A DNA stretch of 64,000 bases from a virus. Position 1 is the stretch's first letter. Each line of letters begins with the position of its first letter. Location of the stretch: IMG/VR virus record IMGVR_UViG_3300032456_000002, positions 5,726 through 69,725 of that record; one strand, given 5' to 3'. The translations under genes and the position numbers were made by a program. The notes beneath the pieces were generated by a model that was not told where the DNA came from, ran no database searches, and was given only the letters and a program-made list of their open reading frames with translations. Below, in pieces: positions 3,993-54,190 of this stretch.

Positions 3993-5303
3993 TTACTCCC
4001 TCCGCATCCAACTAAGATCCCTTTTCCTCAACGTCTTCAATTCTTCGATCGCCTCTCCAATCATGGCGAACCCGACAGCCCAACTCATGACGGCATCATC
4101 CTTCTCGCCATCGATTGCCTGCCTCTGCACACGGCTAAACTTTTTCATCTGAGGAATGCCATGCCAGTCAGCAGGGTAGACAACATCGCCATCGCTAAGG
4201 GCTAGGGTGATGCGATCGGTATTGATGAGTTTGGATGTGGCAGATGTGTTGACAATTTCTACCCGCAATTTAGGACGCGCCTCGATAAAGTTTTCAGCTT
4301 GGCTTAGTCCACCATTATTTTTCTCAATAACCAACATCACCACCTTGCCAGTGCGATCGTATTGATCCAAAGTCTTCAGACATTCGGCACGACAATAGCT
4401 AGGCAGTCGATTGTTCTCATGCCACGATGCCACTAGCTGCAATGGATGGCTGGTGATATCCCAAATCTGAAAGTCCCAGTCATCAGCACCTCCCTGGTTA
4501 GGGTCAATCATGGCAAGGTAGAAATGTTTGCGCTCTGGCTTAGTCCATTGCCCTGTAGCTTGTCTATCTATTGCTGCAATGTTGAATAAAGAATTTTTCT
4601 CGCTGGCAGGTTTGCAGAATAGTTCCTCGTCTGCATCGTCGCCATATTCTAGGATGATTTGCGATCGCCACAGGTCTTGTTTTTCCTGACTCCATTCTTC
4701 CCCATTGACCAGGCAGATGCGTTGATAAAGTCCATCGGCTAGGGCGTCATCAAAGGTGATGGTATGCAGACTGTAGCCGCGCTGTGGGGCTATCTTGTAG
4801 CAGAGTTCTTCAAAGTGGCTGCATAGACTATTGACGGATGAGATAATGTCAATCCTTGCACCCCAGATTAGCAGAGCGATCGCGGCTTTTAATAGTTCTT
4901 CCGGCTTGTCATGAAATGCGTATTCATCTAGAATGACCCTGCCTTTTCTACTCCTTAAGTTCCTAGGATTAGATGACAAAGCAGTGATATTGAAGCCACT
5001 GGCAAAGCGAATTCTGAAGGCAAGGATATCCTCGTCCTCATTTTTTATAACGAGTTCTTCGATGTCAGTGGCGACTAAGCTATAAGCCCGAGCCCAACTT
5101 GCAGCGTCAGAGATGAACTGCAAAGCCATCTCTTTTGAGTACCCCAAATAAGTGGTAGATATTCCGTTGATTCGACTAGCCTCTAAAGCACAATCCCCAG
5201 CGATGCTCCAGCTAATCCCGACGCGTCTACTCTTGCGGAATATCCGCACCCTCGCTGAGTCTTCCAGCCCGATCGCTTGATATGGGAGTAGAACTTTGGG
5301 CAT
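3993..5303 (-). CDS. terL: terminase large subunit (Mu gp28-like ATPase)
   Basis: LLPYQ, KSRRVGISW Walker A, VILDEYAF Walker B, C-terminal KDDAVMS; start moved to ATG 5303 (GGGAG RBS). Confidence 0.9.
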   Translation of the reverse strand: MPKVLLPYQAIGLEDSARVRIFRKSRRVGISWSIAGDCALEASRINGISTTYLGYSKEMALQFISDAASWARAYSLVATDIEELVIKNEDEDILAFRIRFASGFNITALSSNPRNLRSRKGRVILDEYAFHDKPEELLKAAIALLIWGARIDIISSVNSLCSHFEELCYKIAPQRGYSLHTITFDDALADGLYQRICLVNGEEWSQEKQDLWRSQIILEYGDDADEELFCKPASEKNSLFNIAAIDRQATGQWTKPERKHFYLAMIDPNQGGADDWDFQIWDITSHPLQLVASWHENNRLPSYCRAECLKTLDQYDRTGKVVMLVIEKNNGGLSQAENFIEARPKLRVEIVNTSATSKLINTDRITLALSDGDVVYPADWHGIPQMKKFSRVQRQAIDGEKDDAVMSWAVGFAMIGEAIEELKTLRKRDLSWMRRE

Positions 5304-6033
5304 TGACTCCCATGATTTCCGCTCGGATTCTTCCAAACGTTTCTTCTGAGAGTCCCCCAGAGTGTTCCCTCTCTTGGCTAAGTTGGTAGAGGAGCGGTTC
5401 TGGGAGTTCTCCTTGCAATAGCGCTGTAACTTCTTCTGTGGCGCGGTTATAAATTTTGTTGGCACAGTCAGCTACCCAAGATGGAACAATGTTCATATCA
5501 GTCATTTTATCCAACACATCCCCTTCGGTCACTGACTCCTCTTTCGGATAAAGCTTTAATTTCTTAATGAGTTTCTCCAGTGCTGCAAGTTTGTCATGCA
5601 ACGTCACCTCCCATTCAATCGTTACATCTACCTCTTGCACTTCTCCTATGGTTCGTGTCGTAGTCTTCTTTTTGCACTTGACAGTTTTAATGGCACTCTT
5701 GCCTCGATGGGTCAGCCTGCTGCTAGGTATGACCTCAACGCCTTCCTCATCCCACGCCATAGCATCGGTGATGTTGGCAAATGCGATCGCCACGGTCTCA
5801 TGAATCACCGATACCTCTGTCAGGTTCAAAACTTCGCCCAAATAGGCGCTTACCTTAGGATTCCCTAGGAGCTGAGAAGACGATACCCATGCAACTTTAT
5901 CATTTTTGCATAAGTACCCAGCATCCTTATAAGACTGTGTAGCATTAAGCGATCGCGCATAATGCTGACAAAATCTAAACTGCTGATCTGTCAGTCCGTG
6001 CGGGTTTTGATGCTTGGGTACAGTCTTTGCCAT
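5227..6033 (-). CDS. terS: terminase small subunit
   Basis: LTDQQFRFCQHY..NATQSYKDAGY, IAFANITD, LHDKLAALEKL. Confidence 0.9.
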   Translation of the reverse strand: MAKTVPKHQNPHGLTDQQFRFCQHYARSLNATQSYKDAGYLCKNDKVAWVSSSQLLGNPKVSAYLGEVLNLTEVSVIHETVAIAFANITDAMAWDEEGVEVIPSSRLTHRGKSAIKTVKCKKKTTTRTIGEVQEVDVTIEWEVTLHDKLAALEKLIKKLKLYPKEESVTEGDVLDKMTDMNIVPSWVADCANKIYNRATEEVTALLQGELPEPLLYQLSQEREHSGGLSEETFGRIRAEIMGVNAQSSTPISSDRAGRLSEGADIPQE

Positions 6034-48306: not shown

Positions 48307-48774
48307 ATGCCTCCCCAGCTATCCCCACCATGCGGCTTCCATCCTAAAGTTTCTACCCTAGCCCTAGCCCTTGAGAAATACCTCACGACGCAGCCTACCA
48401 TCCGCAAGGCTGCGTTTTATGTGGCATCAGATAAGCCGGGGCAAGAGCAACGCCATGATCATAATCCTTTGGGTTGGTGGACGATGCAAGTCGTCAATGG
48501 GGATACAAAGTCAGGGTTTGATTACATTTCTAATCAGTTTGTCGATGTGCAGTTTAGATTCACTGCCAATAATGTGAACCCCATTAAGGCTCTGGCATTA
48601 CTGGAGACGATTGATGAGGCGCTGCTGACAATGAGTTGCGAATGCTTGGCTTGTGATGGGCAATATGTGACGGCAATAAGGCGATCGAGTATTACCTTGC
48701 CGGTGGTGTTCCGTCCGCAGATTCAAAGGAATAGCGCGGTGGCGTTCTATGAGTTTGCGTTGAAGCGGGGTTAG
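48307..48774 (+). CDS. putative tail terminator protein
   Basis: size and beta pattern (V.VQFRF, A..L..I..AL); weak. Confidence 0.4.
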   Translation: MPPQLSPPCGFHPKVSTLALALEKYLTTQPTIRKAAFYVASDKPGQEQRHDHNPLGWWTMQVVNGDTKSGFDYISNQFVDVQFRFTANNVNPIKALALLETIDEALLTMSCECLACDGQYVTAIRRSSITLPVVFRPQIQRNSAVAFYEFALKRG

Positions 48775-48799
48775 TGGGAAGCTGGTTTTGGTGGTGGTG

Positions 48800-49058
48800 G
48801 TGCCACTTCGCTTTATATCTCAGACCTTCTGCAACTTTTAAGAAGGAGTTGACTACGAGCGACCATCTGCCTCGCAGTGCCACTTAACTTTACATCTCCT
48901 GACTTCTGCAACCATCTTATCTTGAAAGTCGGGGAAAGAAATATTAGGGTGCCACTTAACTTTACATCTCCTACCTTCTGCAACCAAAAAGCTCGATAGC
49001 CTTGCGAACGATCTCACCCTGGGTGCCACTTCGATCAGAGCCTCCGACCTTCTGCAAC
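48800..49058 (-). CRISPR. mini CRISPR array: four 36-bp repeats and three spacers (41, 36, 38 nt), plus a degenerate repeat end at about 49084..49093 with a 25-nt spacer
   Basis: repeats at 48800..48835, 48877..48912, 48949..48984, 49023..49058; minus-strand consensus GTTGCAGAAGGTCGGAGATGTAAAGYKAAGTGGCAC with conserved ends. Confidence 0.9.
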
Positions 49059-49099
49059 CGCATGAGCCTGATGGTAGACCGGGGTGCTACATCTCAACA

Positions 49100-49271
49100 C
49101 GAAGGTTCAATCGCTTTGTGGTAGCTAGAATAAGTACTCTAAGGTTTGCGAGGTTCGGAGGATGAAAAAGAAGTAGAGAGGCAACGCCCCTAAGCCATGA
49201 CTGCTGCATTCCCGAAGGTGCGACGCTATCGTTATCCTGCTCGGCTCACAAAAGCAGTTGTCAACATTGTA
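49100..49271 (-). ncRNA. putative tracrRNA
   Basis: anti-repeat at 49144..49178 (+ strand GTTTGCGAGGTTCGGAGGATGAAAAAGAAGTAGAG resembles the minus-sense repeat); lies between effector and array; ends approximate. Confidence 0.65.
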
Positions 49272-50597
49272 TCAAGGTTCTGCCAAAATGCGATCGCCAT
49301 CCGCAGCTTTTTGTTTGAGCAATGCCCTCAATCTACCAGTCCTCAACCTTGTTACTTTTTTGTTGAATCTGGCAACCCTTTCGGCTCCATTGGGTGCATA
49401 AACAGCAGGCTCAACATCAATAGGTATCGGTTCTGGCTTGGGGATGGGCTTAGTTTTGGCGGGTTGCAGTTCAATTTCTCCATAGGTGCGAACGATGAAT
49501 GTAGATAACTTGTGAGCGTGTTGGTCTGCACCTTTCGCAATTTTCCATTCAACACGTTTGATTTGTTTTCGTAACTCTAGTTCATTCTTTGACTGCGGAA
49601 TGTGCAACCCTAATTTATTGGAACGATTCTGTCTAACGCTTTGCTTCTCCGCTAGTTTTAGTTGCAGTTTCTCCAATTGCTTCGAGAGCTTCAAATTTTC
49701 AAAGGGCTTCACCTCTTTACCTTTGTCATCCCGATAAAGCAGATTCTCAACCCTTGGAAACTCTAAAGAACATTTACGATCGCTTGGTTTGAGTTCAACT
49801 TTAGGCAATTCCCCGGTTAGCTGAAGTTGCCAAAAACCAGGAAGGTTACAAACTTTCAAAACGCAGATCTCTACGTCTGTCCAAACTTTTGCCGACTCAG
49901 GCATGACAATCAGTCCCAGACCAGGAACCCTGATTTGTCCATCTTTGACTTTAATACTTTTAGCGTCGTTACTGACTAGCGTAGACAGTCCGTTACGAAT
50001 GCCCTTAAATCTGGGTTCTCCCATTCGCCCCGACTTATGTTCCTTCCATGCGATCGCCAATGATGCCAGCGTTCCCCGGACGAAAACACTGGGTACTTTC
50101 TGTAGTTCCGCCCACTCTGGGTTCGCCTTTTGGGAGAACATCGCAGACAGGCTAAACGCTGAAGGTCTATCTAAGCGCGGCTCAACGTATGGCAGCGGCA
50201 ACGGACAGCAAGGGCGATAAGGGCGGCGGTAACTATCGAATGATGTGCATGGAGTATATGGAACGGGCACCCATTTAATTTTTGCGGCTGGCTCCACTGG
50301 CTCAAGAGGTTTATCAGTTTTCTTCTTCGCCTTTTTGCTTTTCGTTGCGCCGTTGGCAGGAATGAAACGATACTTCCAAGGAGCAATCACTATACCATCC
50401 TTATCAACCCCTCCAAAAATCGGCATTGATGGATATCTAGTTTTGTCGTACTTGTTCCAAGTGGAATAGCGATCGCACTCTAGAATAAGTTCTAGAGCCT
50501 GATTCCAAACTCTACGCAGCGCCTCAAACCATTGTTCTGTAAGTGCTAACTGAGCAGGATCTAATTTGATTGTGTAAGTTATAGTTTTCATATCCAT
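49272..50597 (-). CDS. TnpB-derived type V (C2c8/V-U2-like) effector, predicted nuclease-dead and truncated
   Basis: MKT..Y.I..Q..W..LR.VWN, PRFK, VPGLG, HKLSTF.VRTY, Y.PNGA; RuvC-I GID is SLE, RuvC-II E is Q; no Zn finger or RuvC-III. Confidence 0.85.
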   Translation of the reverse strand: MDMKTITYTIKLDPAQLALTEQWFEALRRVWNQALELILECDRYSTWNKYDKTRYPSMPIFGGVDKDGIVIAPWKYRFIPANGATKSKKAKKKTDKPLEPVEPAAKIKWVPVPYTPCTSFDSYRRPYRPCCPLPLPYVEPRLDRPSAFSLSAMFSQKANPEWAELQKVPSVFVRGTLASLAIAWKEHKSGRMGEPRFKGIRNGLSTLVSNDAKSIKVKDGQIRVPGLGLIVMPESAKVWTDVEICVLKVCNLPGFWQLQLTGELPKVELKPSDRKCSLEFPRVENLLYRDDKGKEVKPFENLKLSKQLEKLQLKLAEKQSVRQNRSNKLGLHIPQSKNELELRKQIKRVEWKIAKGADQHAHKLSTFIVRTYGEIELQPAKTKPIPKPEPIPIDVEPAVYAPNGAERVARFNKKVTRLRTGRLRALLKQKAADGDRILAEP

Positions 50598-50689
50598 CGC
50601 CTAGTAATAATAGGTTAGTGGTTAGCATAGCTGAGTAGATTGAAGTCTATCAGCTATGCGTTTGAGATTCACTGCGAAATGGGCTGGAT

Positions 50690-50800
50690 CTATTCTCCGA
50701 TCAGCTTTTGGCGATCGCCATTGGTCAATAATCGATAGGCTTCATCTAGGAATTCTTTGGGGACATATTCAGCCGTTACGGTTCGAGGCGTTTGAGCGAT
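50690..50800 (-). pseudogene. orphan antirepressor C-terminus (..NGDRQKLIGE*)
   Basis: same terminal peptide and near-identical DNA as the end of 8583..9407; out of frame with the upstream gene. Confidence 0.7.
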
Positions 50801-51393
50801 TAAGTCGCCACATAATGAGTCATCTTGATATGAAGAGGTTTGCAGTGCTTTTCGATCAAGAGAAGAGAATCACTATGACAATCACCAAAAAGATGAATTC
50901 TTTTCTTATGGCTGGGGTAATACAGGGAATAAACCAAAACCTGTCCAATTGCGGCTTTCCATGAGTCAATACGCTTTACCTCTATCACCTCTGTTGATGT
51001 AAGCAGGTCTATGTTTCCAGCGGGTGTCAAAACTTCCCTTTGTCCTCCCACCTCTCTCTTCAGTTCGTTTGTCACGACTGATTCAGTTAGCCTACCCTTT
51101 GGGCGATCGCCTTTGTGTCGAGAGACGGAGGTAAGATAGTCTACCTGCTCCTGTGTGAGTAAGACAAAAGTCGTCTCATTGACCGCCCCTACTGAGTTTG
51201 TGACAGTTCCGATATTAAATCTTAGGTTCCCAAACCTTTGCTCTACTCGCTCTCGATGCTTGCGAATCGTTTTAATAAAGGACTCGTGCTGAATCCCTAA
51301 GCGATCGGCAATTAGCCTGGAGTCTACAAGCAGAGTCCCATCTTGTTCAACAATGGATAGAGCGGTCGAACTTGGTACAATGTTAGAAGTCAT
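50800..51393 (-). CDS. Rha-like N-terminal domain fused to PD-(D/E)XK-like nuclease domain
   Basis: VDSRLIA..LGIQH; G.IDLLT..EVIEVK...WK.AIGQ.LVY. Confidence 0.75.
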   Translation of the reverse strand: MTSNIVPSSTALSIVEQDGTLLVDSRLIADRLGIQHESFIKTIRKHRERVEQRFGNLRFNIGTVTNSVGAVNETTFVLLTQEQVDYLTSVSRHKGDRPKGRLTESVVTNELKREVGGQREVLTPAGNIDLLTSTEVIEVKRIDSWKAAIGQVLVYSLYYPSHKKRIHLFGDCHSDSLLLIEKHCKPLHIKMTHYVAT

Positions 51394-51490
51394 GATTCTA
51401 GTTCTCTTAGATTTGTGGTTAGCCCCAGGTTCCCGCCTGGGCACTCCAGTAATATTAACGCAAATACCCACAGCAAAAGCACGAACAAGA

Positions 51491-51898
51491 ATGCCCACCT
51501 TCCCCGCCATCAAACCCGACTATTTCTCAGATATCCAGATGCCCGAATACAAGGGCAAGGATTTGGAATTTGATGATGGCGGGGTGCAGACAGTGCAGAC
51601 GCAGTTCCGACCATCAAGGATTTCCTTCTCACTGAAGTATGATTACTTGGTTGTGGCTGAAGTGGAAAGCCTAATGAGTTTCTGGCGATCGGTCTTTGGC
51701 ACCAATGGACGGTTTGACTTGCCTGACATTGTGTTGAGAATGCCATCGCCCATCGTTACGCAATTCAACCTAAGCAATGCTGGGGGCAATGTGTGGCGGT
51801 TCTCCAGTGCTTATACTTTTACTCCAGTGGTAGCAGATAGGGGTAATGAATGCAGTCGGTATAGCACGATGATTAATATCAGAGGGGAGTTGAGTTGA
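51491..51898 (+). CDS. distal / minor tail protein
   Basis: P.FP.I.P, F.DG.., L.Y..L...E...L..F.....G....F.LP, WRF. Confidence 0.65.
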   Translation: MPTFPAIKPDYFSDIQMPEYKGKDLEFDDGGVQTVQTQFRPSRISFSLKYDYLVVAEVESLMSFWRSVFGTNGRFDLPDIVLRMPSPIVTQFNLSNAGGNVWRFSSAYTFTPVVADRGNECSRYSTMINIRGELS

Positions 51899-53313: not shown

Positions 53314-53437
53314 GTTTGACGTTAACGCAAAAAATGAGTGTTTTAGCGAGGGAGTGGTAAGATTTAAGGGCGCGATCGCCATTCCTTAGAAGAAGAGCGA
53401 TCGCTGACCACAGACCTATTATTGCTAGGAATTGGCT

Positions 53438-54190
53438 ATGAGTATTGTACCTTTTGATTTCAATGGTTTTGAGCTTCGGACTTTAGGAACATGGGATGCA
53501 CCGCTTTTTGTGGCTGCGGATGTTTGTAAGATTCTGGAGATTAAGAATGTTTCGATGGCTTGTGAGTGCTTGGATGAAGATGAAAAGGGCATCTATAGCG
53601 TCAAGACTCATGGAGGGGGGCAAGACGCGCTCTGTGTTACAGAGCCTGGGCTGTACCGCCTTGTATTTAAATCTCGCAAGCCGATAGCAAAGGTTTTCCA
53701 AAAATGGGTGTTCTCCAAATTGCTGCCATCTATTAGAACCCAATCTCTTTCGGGTGATTGGGTCATCAAAAAGCTCAACGAGATACAAGAGTCGCAGTCT
53801 GAATTAATAGAGATTGCATCAGCCTCAATGGAGTCAGTGTACAGAGACCGTTTAGCCGATCTACTAGCCGGAGCTACTGAGGTGCAATCGTATATCAGCG
53901 CTTTTGCCACGCTAGAAGAGAGTGATGTTGCTGTTGCTGTCTTCGCTGACGTCGTGACGGACGTTGCAGTGATTGAAGTGAAATCGTTTGCCTTGTGGAA
54001 ACAAGCACTAGGACAAGCCCTGGTTTACAAGAAATGCATCAAGTTTTCGGAGAAAGAACCGGGGGTATATTTATTTAACTGCCCCAAAGACAATCGGTTG
54101 CGAGACGTGTTTTCTATTTTTGATGAGTATGAAATCGAGTTTTGCTATTACACGTTCACTGGAGAATCTGAAATCAGAAGGATGCTATAA
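53438..54190 (+). CDS. BRO-N domain fused to PD-(D/E)XK-like domain
   Basis: PLFVAADVC.IL, EPGLYRLVFKSRKP.AK.FQKW; DVVTD..VIEVK...WKQALGQ. Confidence 0.85.
   Translation: MSIVPFDFNGFELRTLGTWDAPLFVAADVCKILEIKNVSMACECLDEDEKGIYSVKTHGGGQDALCVTEPGLYRLVFKSRKPIAKVFQKWVFSKLLPSIRTQSLSGDWVIKKLNEIQESQSELIEIASASMESVYRDRLADLLAGATEVQSYISAFATLEESDVAVAVFADVVTDVAVIEVKSFALWKQALGQALVYKKCIKFSEKEPGVYLFNCPKDNRLRDVFSIFDEYEIEFCYYTFTGESEIRRML

Follow-up and report, generated by a model that had tools for sequence, protein, structure and literature searches.

Within a 64,000-nucleotide (nt) stretch of viral DNA (the window; bases 5726–69725 of the linear, 69,725-nt IMG/VR virus record IMGVR_UViG_3300032456_000002, CheckV completeness 67), a gene for a very probably nuclease-dead derivative of the type V-U2 effector C2c8 lies next to a mini-array of four CRISPR-type repeats (CRISPR stands for clustered regularly interspaced short palindromic repeat). 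On balance, we lean towards reading this module as a phage-carried, minimal type V CRISPR-like system, the effector of which would be an RNA-guided DNA binder and repressor that does not cut. The module consists of the following parts (window positions).

48772..50681, no strand assigned: whole module (array, gap, effector gene and 84-nt upstream region), delimited by contig comparison
49272..50597, minus strand: effector gene, 441 amino acids (aa), a probable nuclease-dead and C-terminally short C2c8 (type V-U2) derivative, from its open reading frame (ORF), family and fold
49059..49271, minus strand: non-coding gap of 213 nt from the stop codon to repeat 1, candidate scaffold or tracr-like RNA (tracr, trans-activating CRISPR RNA), from the sequence
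49023..49058, minus strand: repeat 1, with the most divergent centre, from the array scan
48985..49022, minus strand: spacer 1, 38 nt, no match found
48949..48984, minus strand: repeat 2, from the array scan
48913..48948, minus strand: spacer 2, 36 nt, no match found
48877..48912, minus strand: repeat 3, from the array scan
48836..48876, minus strand: spacer 3, 41 nt, no match found
48800..48835, minus strand: repeat 4, from the array scan
48772..48799, minus strand: 28 nt after repeat 4, up to the point where related phages diverge, from the sequence and contigs

The true start of the effector is probably at 50591, giving 439 aa, since its database copy (P0002, 439 aa) and relatives begin at MKT. 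Pfam matched only the N-terminal HTH_OrfB_IS605 domain (E = 5.9e-5). The top NCBIfam match was V_cas_c2c8 (NF038192; E = 4.4e-58; 197.5 bits against a cut-off of 350), with residues 4–437 of the protein aligned to positions 1–434 of the 457 in the profile, and the IS200_TnpB profile NF038281 scored 43 bits against a cut-off of 425. When aligned with relatives whose active site is intact, the window protein had E (SLEFP) in place of D (GIDVG) in the RuvC-I column, Q (ELQP) in place of E (AVED) in the RuvC-II column, and gaps at all four Cys columns of the zinc (Zn) finger and at the RuvC-III column. The features of an active nuclease, the RuvC D-E-D triad and the Zn finger, are absent. An AlphaFold2 model built on 16 clade members (mean predicted local distance difference test score 75.2) had the WED, REC and RuvC core of the TnpB/Cas12 fold when compared with PDB structures. 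Foldseek ranked Cas12p first (E = 5.3e-16), followed by TnpBs and Cas12f. Alignment of the model with ISDra2 TnpB by VIA-align gave a Z score of 23.1 and a root-mean-square deviation of 3.1 Å over 304 residues, and Z exceeded 10 for Cas12p, Cas12f, dCas12f, Cas12m and Cas12k. Model residues 1–441 superposed on residues 2–321 of the ISDra2 TnpB chain, which we take to end before the Zn finger and the third catalytic Asp. Judged by its alignments and model, the effector has in all likelihood lost nuclease activity.

The array was scored in a 38-nt register, the repeats themselves being 36 nt long. Their start-to-start spacing is 77, 72 and 74 nt, and four copies at such CRISPR-like spacing are far beyond chance; there was no other tandem family of this kind in the window. 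The repeat ends GTTGCAGAAG and AAGTGGCAC are invariant in all four copies, the centres differ, and identity to the reference copy is 66, 95, 100 and 76% for repeats 1 to 4 in the 38-nt register. A pattern of the conserved ends around 17 free positions had no exact-end copies elsewhere in IMG/VR. As is typical of type V loci, the effector gene adjoins the array, at a distance of 213 nt and on the same strand. The 28 nt after repeat 4 could conceivably serve as a terminal guide. A 151-nt contig from sequencing run X4 contained a 34-nt copy of repeat 1 (49026–49059, one difference) with both flanks unlike the window, and the repeat-1 type may belong to another array elsewhere.

To place the effector among its relatives, 1.84 billion representatives were scanned with HMMER, giving 177 relatives at E ≤ 1e-3 and 24 at E ≤ 1e-30. 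From the representatives with 340 aa or more, the best 75 were classified and placed in a maximum-likelihood tree (IQ-TREE quick search, 469 columns), the rows of which are representatives found with the window protein, with no outgroup of other type V subtypes. The D/E/D residues and four Cys were kept in 43 of the 75; the RuvC-I Asp and the Zn finger were gone in 32. The window protein fell inside a clade of 26 rows that are dead without exception (26/26; Shimodaira–Hasegawa-like approximate likelihood ratio test, SH-aLRT, 98) and, within it, in an inner clade of 21 rows (SH-aLRT 98), with P0003 as its sister at 63% identity. Six more dead rows lay elsewhere in the tree, five of them grouped as a second clade and one by itself, so that the dead state within the C2c8-like family needs about three changes, two of which are forced by the starred branches. 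The 26-row clade (the dead clade) branches among D/E/D proteins, including P0017 and P0043, which pass the NF038192 cut-off with 481 and 374 bits; P0038 reached 332.6 bits. C2c8 was the top NCBIfam match for all ten relatives scanned, and the seven dead-clade members among the ten proteins scanned scored 146–286 bits. The window protein is thus a C2c8 derivative by descent and not a C2c8 member by score: the label C2c8-like given to it earlier stood as to best family match and ancestry, and did not stand as to membership.

Pairwise divergence among the 26 dead representatives exceeds 50%, and still about 13 columns are invariant and 20 nearly so. Between two dead members (loci L017 and L018, 68% identical) the nonsynonymous and synonymous rates were dN 0.258 and dS 2.35 (ratio 0.11), the latter being close to saturation; the comparison of loci L002 and L003 was saturated. 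Three single-nucleotide polymorphisms are listed within the ORF of a near-identical variant from metagenome run X2, and all three are synonymous. On these limited data, selection on the dead clade looks purifying. Since the losses are common to the whole clade and selection looks purifying, the effector does not seem to be a decaying allele, and it is most likely a functional gene under selection. The loss of the active site appears to be old and shared by a diversified clade; the independent inactivation of this one allele, as it had been described, did not survive the comparison. Matches were infrequent in the cyanobacterial genomes sampled (4/401 at E 1e-30; 3/90 at E 1e-40 within one order), and every genome match that was read had the Zn finger except the starting genome, G001.

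DNA was read for five dead-clade loci, whose flanks had nothing in common but the effector, and the downstream DNA was readable at four. An array was present at three of these four, namely in the window (four repeats) and on the viral contigs L017 (10 repeats, 4598–5310) and L018 (14 repeats, 4553–5560), where it starts right at the effector stop codon. One spacer of the L017 array is present twice. Since the L017 and L018 repeats likewise combine irregular centres with invariant ends (GTGAA ... GTTGCAC), repeat irregularity looks like a family trait. In the Stenomitos metagenome-assembled genome L003, the sequence ends 89 nt past the stop codon, and in the provirus L002 a gap of 236 nt separates the dead homologue from the next gene. 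The repeats of the dead clade and a motif in the L002 gap all end in GCAC on the strand of the gene, which argues for a common reading direction of gene and array, with each spacer placed after its repeat. Intact-site relatives have ordinary downstream arrays (15 repeats at L014, at least 2 at L015 and 13 at L016); an ordinary array also follows gp061 of the Aphanizomenon cyanophage vB_AphaS-CL131 (CL131), a V-U2 locus published in 2018 (PMC6293099). In the active relatives seen, the repeats end in GAAAG, GAAAC or GCAAG. At L002:5614–7856, the dead homologue and a gene of the sigma-70 family (regions 2, 3 and 4 in Pfam) run towards each other, and the latter is followed by a dnaN-like beta-clamp gene. 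This sigma neighbour, a single case, recalls sigma-linked dead Cas12f systems.

Among the genes of the window are those for a tape-measure protein (2,008 aa), a tail protein (2,051 aa), helicases, a resolvase similar to RusA and several antirepressors of the Ant/Rha type. Profiles for Cas1 and for the Y1 transposase TnpA (Y1_Tnp) had no matches in the whole 69,725-nt record, and their positive controls worked; the TniQ profile had none in the record either. Scans of 18 flanking ORFs revealed no transposase family, TnsB and TnsC profiles not being searched separately. The initial annotation, made from the sequence alone, had proposed a phage-encoded module with a 441-aa TnpB-fold ORF, altered RuvC-I and RuvC-II residues, a protein that stops short of the Zn finger and RuvC-III, a 36-nt repeat in four copies separated by spacers of 36–41 nt, and no adaptation or transposition genes. 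These points agreed with what we found by profile and structure comparison, in the array scan and in the gene content of the record. Homologous loci with the same truncation were also sought and found, and it is not the case that close homologues keep D-E-D while selection is relaxed.

The left flank of the module continued up to 48771 in contigs of other metagenome runs (two in X2, one in X5). Past this point the contigs switch to other sequence, with a consensus identical between both runs, which indicates that the module occupies a variable spot of the phage group. The X5 contig fuses 48772 to 50681, a weak joint whose shorter side is just 28 letters. In run X2, which contained abundant related phages, read depth was 50–150 in the flanks and just 0–13 over 48870–51335; a rarer, near-identical phage carrying the module was found in the same run. 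Thin coverage in X2 reaches about 51450, a wider variable region that seems to take in the Rha-like antirepressor gene as well. The variable spot of the module is bounded by a conserved ORF and this antirepressor gene. The flanking genes and the upstream region of the effector are as follows.

48307..48774, plus strand: conserved phage ORF outside the module, function unassigned; its stop codon (48772–48774) is the left border of the variable region
50598..50681, minus strand: effector upstream region, with a TATTAT hexamer (50612..50607) 10–15 nt ahead of the first ATG
50800..51513, minus strand: Rha-like antirepressor gene outside the module, matching PHROG anti-repressor families (Phage_pRha E = 6.7e-6, under the gathering score)

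A second match to Rha/Ant antirepressor families lies at 53432–54190. The TATTAT hexamer may be part of a promoter for the effector gene; a scan of 48500–51000 for two-hexamer promoters and for terminators found nothing in 50598–50681 and gave, in all, one promoter-like and one terminator-like site (49191..49177, minus strand), fewer than in shuffled sequences.

If the module works as a repressor system, gene and array would be transcribed from the minus strand, and the conserved 3' end of each repeat (..GTGGCAC) would remain attached to the next spacer, as is the case in TnpB-derived systems. The protein and its guide, possibly together with an RNA from the 213-nt gap, would bind complementary double-stranded DNA beside a protospacer adjacent motif (PAM) without cutting it. 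The bound complex would then block transcription or replication of the target in the host, a competing phage or a plasmid. As the spacers are few and the repeats irregular, the guides are probably fixed or slow-changing, not gained by adaptation. We regard it as fairly probable that the effector is guided by RNAs from the adjacent array, and give an even chance to its keeping a target, in the host or a rival element, from being transcribed or replicated. The silencing of host or competitor genes, as proposed in the initial annotation, might conceivably be the result.

Several observations weigh against this reading. Residues 58–147 are unmodelled in the AlphaFold2 structure. The repeats are only 66–95% alike, which is compatible with a decaying array. 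The provirus L002 (IMGVR_UViG_3300039308_000034) has a dead homologue with no array within 4 kb on either side, so an array is not obligatory for the dead clade. Spacers 1–3 had no protospacers in the window, phage, cyanobacterial or IMG/VR sets. The gap, described earlier as about 180 nt containing an anti-repeat, measured 213 nt, and neither the anti-repeat nor a tracr-like RNA gained support. The best ungapped same-strand complementarity between repeat and gap was equalled by 178 of 200 shuffles. The energy of the best duplex (49184..49145, −25.2 kcal/mol) was reached in 64 of 300 shuffles and in 17.5% of 320 other windows of 213 nt. The predicted fold of the gap was no more stable than that of shuffled sequences (z = +1.39 for the minus strand and +0.87 for the plus strand). 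Two candidate elements were noted within the gap.

49145..49184, minus strand: best anti-repeat candidate, pairing best with the 5' half of the repeat (RNAduplex −25.2 kcal/mol with repeat 2)
49085..49099, minus strand: candidate degenerate fifth repeat GTTGAGATGTAGCAC, within chance, followed by 25 nt (49059–49083) and then repeat 1

For none of the four repeats did RNAduplex give an energy below those of shuffles or of windows of equal length, and the 9-mer shared by the fifth-repeat candidate was equalled in 26 of 200 shuffles. On both strands, complementarity was also sought in three further regions, namely the 3' end of the gene, the stretch upstream of it and the stretch downstream of the array, and none was above the shuffles. 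Rfam, including its omegaRNA types, gave no matches in the window at gathering thresholds. A bulged or short anti-repeat, pairing with the repeat as in the tracrRNA-dependent type V systems (V-F, V-K, Cas12p), is still compatible with these results, and a scaffold RNA may well exist. At L017 and L018, where the arrays start at the stop codon, any scaffold would lie inside the 3' end of the gene. Downstream of the dead homologues, L002 (5378–5480) and L003 (5762–5850) share a conserved element of about 90 nt that includes a hairpin in which changes on both sides leave the pairing intact; in this sub-clade it is a candidate guide-scaffold RNA. A search with nhmmer over five targets found this element in L002 and L003 only, and not in the window, L017 or L018. 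A match of the GGATAACGATAGCGTC stretch to the element, made by eye, was dropped since nhmmer found just these two loci. In run X4, a small poly-A RNA library, a contig over 49088–49259 was a fold-back chimera and was not counted as transcription. None of the X4 contigs lay on the ORF, the low cover being uninformative.

Targets were sought with five spacer-like stretches by blastn-short against the window, which gave nothing over 12–13 nt besides the stretches themselves. The array had a best E of 2 against 50,697 phage records. For 344 nt compared with 401 cyanobacterial genomes, the best per-genome E was 0.0019, on the low-complexity stretch after repeat 4, which is about the chance expectation over 401 genomes. 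Exact 22-mers of spacers 1–3 had no matches in IMG/VR for any of the three. The putative guide of L002 matched only itself in its own provirus record.

The weak points of the array would also be explained if the module were an inert remnant of a once-active phage V-U2 system in which effector and array are eroding. Besides the irregular repeats, this account would cover the presence of just three spacers, none of them matched, the lack of a supported tracrRNA, and the absence or replacement of the module in related phages. We nevertheless consider it quite unlikely: the ORF is intact, the same losses recur in 26 representatives despite more than 50% divergence and alongside the invariant and nearly invariant columns noted above, two members give a dN/dS of 0.11, and all three listed polymorphisms are synonymous. 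Irregular centres between invariant ends, moreover, are found in the L017 and L018 arrays too. A functional protein might instead recruit a partner under RNA guidance (a sigma factor, nuclease, recombinase or other phage or host protein), as in Cas12k–Tn7 or dCas12f–sigma-E systems. The array-less L002 homologue, convergent with sigma-70 family and dnaN-like genes, would suit such a role, and so would the fit of the dCas12f structure to the model (Z 15.5–15.6). Sigma-associated inactivated Cas12f descendants have been described as having lost RuvC-III and minimised their arrays (PMC10691335, PMC13472631). However, the variable segment of the window has no second gene, the record has no TniQ, the flanks of the five dead-clade loci agree only in the effector, and a sigma neighbour was seen just once, on the opposite strand. 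Recruitment seems unlikely to us.

Lastly, the protein could be a counter-defence decoy, similar to an anti-CRISPR, that takes up the CRISPR RNA (crRNA) or scaffold RNA of an active C2c8-type system of the host or covers targets on the phage. Active C2c8-like systems with arrays do occur in cyanobacterial genomes (L014–L016), and a phage Cas9 with an inactivated RuvC domain was proposed to act in this way (PMC11656645). Against a decoy, the module has an array of its own. Shared RNA recognition is also not evident, since the repeats of the dead clade end in GCAC and those of the active relatives in GAAAG, GAAAC or GCAAG. We judge a decoy improbable.

Returning to the RNA-guided repressor, we tentatively suggest, as a possibility of somewhat less than even weight, that the module is a CRISPR system turning into a gene regulator owned by the phage: a natural form of multi-guide CRISPR interference (CRISPRi) by a 439-aa protein against genes of the host or of rival phages. 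A clade descended from C2c8 and found mostly in cyanophage or prophage DNA would then have shed the nuclease half of RuvC and the clamp-handle tail, with arrays ranging from 14 repeats via a 4-repeat mini-array to none. Should the protein bind DNA as directed by its mini-array, this would be a fourth or fifth independent route by which cutting was lost and targeting kept, after Cas12k, Cas12m/c, TldR and dCas12f–sigma, and one that runs inside the V-U2 lineage and is carried by cyanophages. Relatives with a large array, a mini-array and no array would form a natural series from CRISPR effector to fixed-guide regulator. A nuclease-free binder of about 439 aa would be among the smallest natural CRISPR-associated programmable DNA binders and a small platform on which CRISPRi tools, base editors or epigenome editors could be built. 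It would also raise the ecological question of what a temperate-looking cyanophage silences.

C2c8 systems of type V-U2 are among those that resemble the module most. In addition to the best family match, they share the N-terminal HTH/WED-REC-RuvC core with a 'Y.PNGA ... GQF' segment, the cyanobacterial or cyanophage setting, and the arrangement of gene, gap and 36-nt-repeat array on one strand with no adaptation genes. In CL131 as in the present phage, an antirepressor gene adjoins the module. In contrast to the window protein, which has neither feature and falls short of the 350-bit cut-off with its 197.5 bits, P0017, P0043 and CL131 gp061 keep D/E/D and a CxxC..CxxC Zn finger. The CL131 array has 10 spacers and near-uniform repeats, as opposed to the three spacers and irregular repeats of the window (PMC6293099), and a tblastn search with the window protein against the 50,697 phage records gave no hit at E 1e-3, CL131 gp061 included. 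Since gp061 keeps D/E/D and the Zn finger, the window module is a variant of the known cyanophage V-U2 kind. The literature searched contained no description of a dead C2c8 derivative lacking the Zn finger, although the supplements of PMC10691335 and PMC12669027 may list the clade.

In function, the effector would work most like Cas12m or a TldR, by analogy, while descending from C2c8 and belonging to neither by defining features. The fliC-associated TldR clade is likewise C-terminally truncated. TldRs, compared here by described features, are miniature nuclease-dead TnpB-fold proteins, encoded by (pro)phages in one clade, for which repression by RNA-guided binding is thought or shown (PMC10705468). 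They differ in their direct origin from mobile TnpBs (PMC10691335), whereas the window protein stems from a CRISPR-associated lineage and has kept an array. They also work with one fixed guide RNA and reportedly have no CRISPR arrays (10.1101/2025.08.27.672191), in contrast to the four repeats of the window; this feature would suit the array-less L002. As for the complementarity of TldR guides to the promoter of a host gene, no target of the window spacers turned up in the sets searched. Cas12m (V-M), Cas12c (V-C) and Cas12k (V-K) share RNA-guided binding of double-stranded DNA without cutting and carriage by mobile elements, and the model matched Cas12m with Z 12.3–13.1 and Cas12k with Z 10–11.5. 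For Cas12m and Cas12c, binding without cleavage has been demonstrated; for other inactivated subtypes of type V it is a prediction (PMC12669027, PMC11013384). Inactivated effectors block transcription in V-C and V-M, and the same was predicted for V-O and V-P (PMC12669027). These proteins belong to other lineages, have about 600 aa or more and carry just point changes in RuvC, whereas the entire Zn finger and RuvC-III segment is deleted from the window protein. Cas12k, in addition, works with TnsB, TnsC and TniQ; the record of the window had no TniQ match, TnsB and TnsC not being searched separately. The module differs from IS200/IS605 TnpB elements in having no Y1_Tnp match and no match to the omegaRNA types of Rfam, transposon ends not being searched.

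For the 'Sigma-TnpB' or dCas12f proteins (PDB 9n9c, 9n9m; Z 15.5–15.6), an evolutionary path of this kind has been described. In the Bacteroidetes lineage derived from Cas12f1, catalysis and RuvC-III were lost and the array was then reduced towards a single guide; Cas12f and several V-U variants are also said to include inactivated branches (PMC10691335). By analogy, the mini-array of the window and the missing array of L002 look like stages of a parallel path. This sigma-linked group differs from the window module by its occurrence in Bacteroidetes, its Cas12f1 origin and its RpoE link, as no sigma gene lies near the module. Cas12p ('Cas12 hacker', PDB 9jfs), the closest solved protein by sequence (E = 1.8e-6) and the top Foldseek match, is likewise phage-encoded, miniature and near TnpB (10.1101/2025.01.20.633832). 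It is, however, an active nuclease of 500–700 aa with just 18–23% identity to the window protein, and it uses a tracrRNA, a GTN PAM and host thioredoxin (10.1101/2025.01.20.633832).

In some of the intact-site C2c8-like representatives (13/43), a long disordered tail leads up to a terminal motif of the QL[SDT]L[FW] type (P0014, P0016, P0019, P0024, P0025, P0026, P0029, P0031, P0037, P0041, P0051, P0057 and P0059), and none of the 32 dead representatives has it. This ending resembles the beta-sliding-clamp binding motif. In CL131 (L026; MG209611.1, 63069–64469 and downstream), another frame reads ..QLTLW and then a stop about 230 nt past the annotated stop codon of gp061, which is the C-terminal motif found in other active relatives too. 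The annotated gp061 may lack this tail through a frameshift or a sequencing error.

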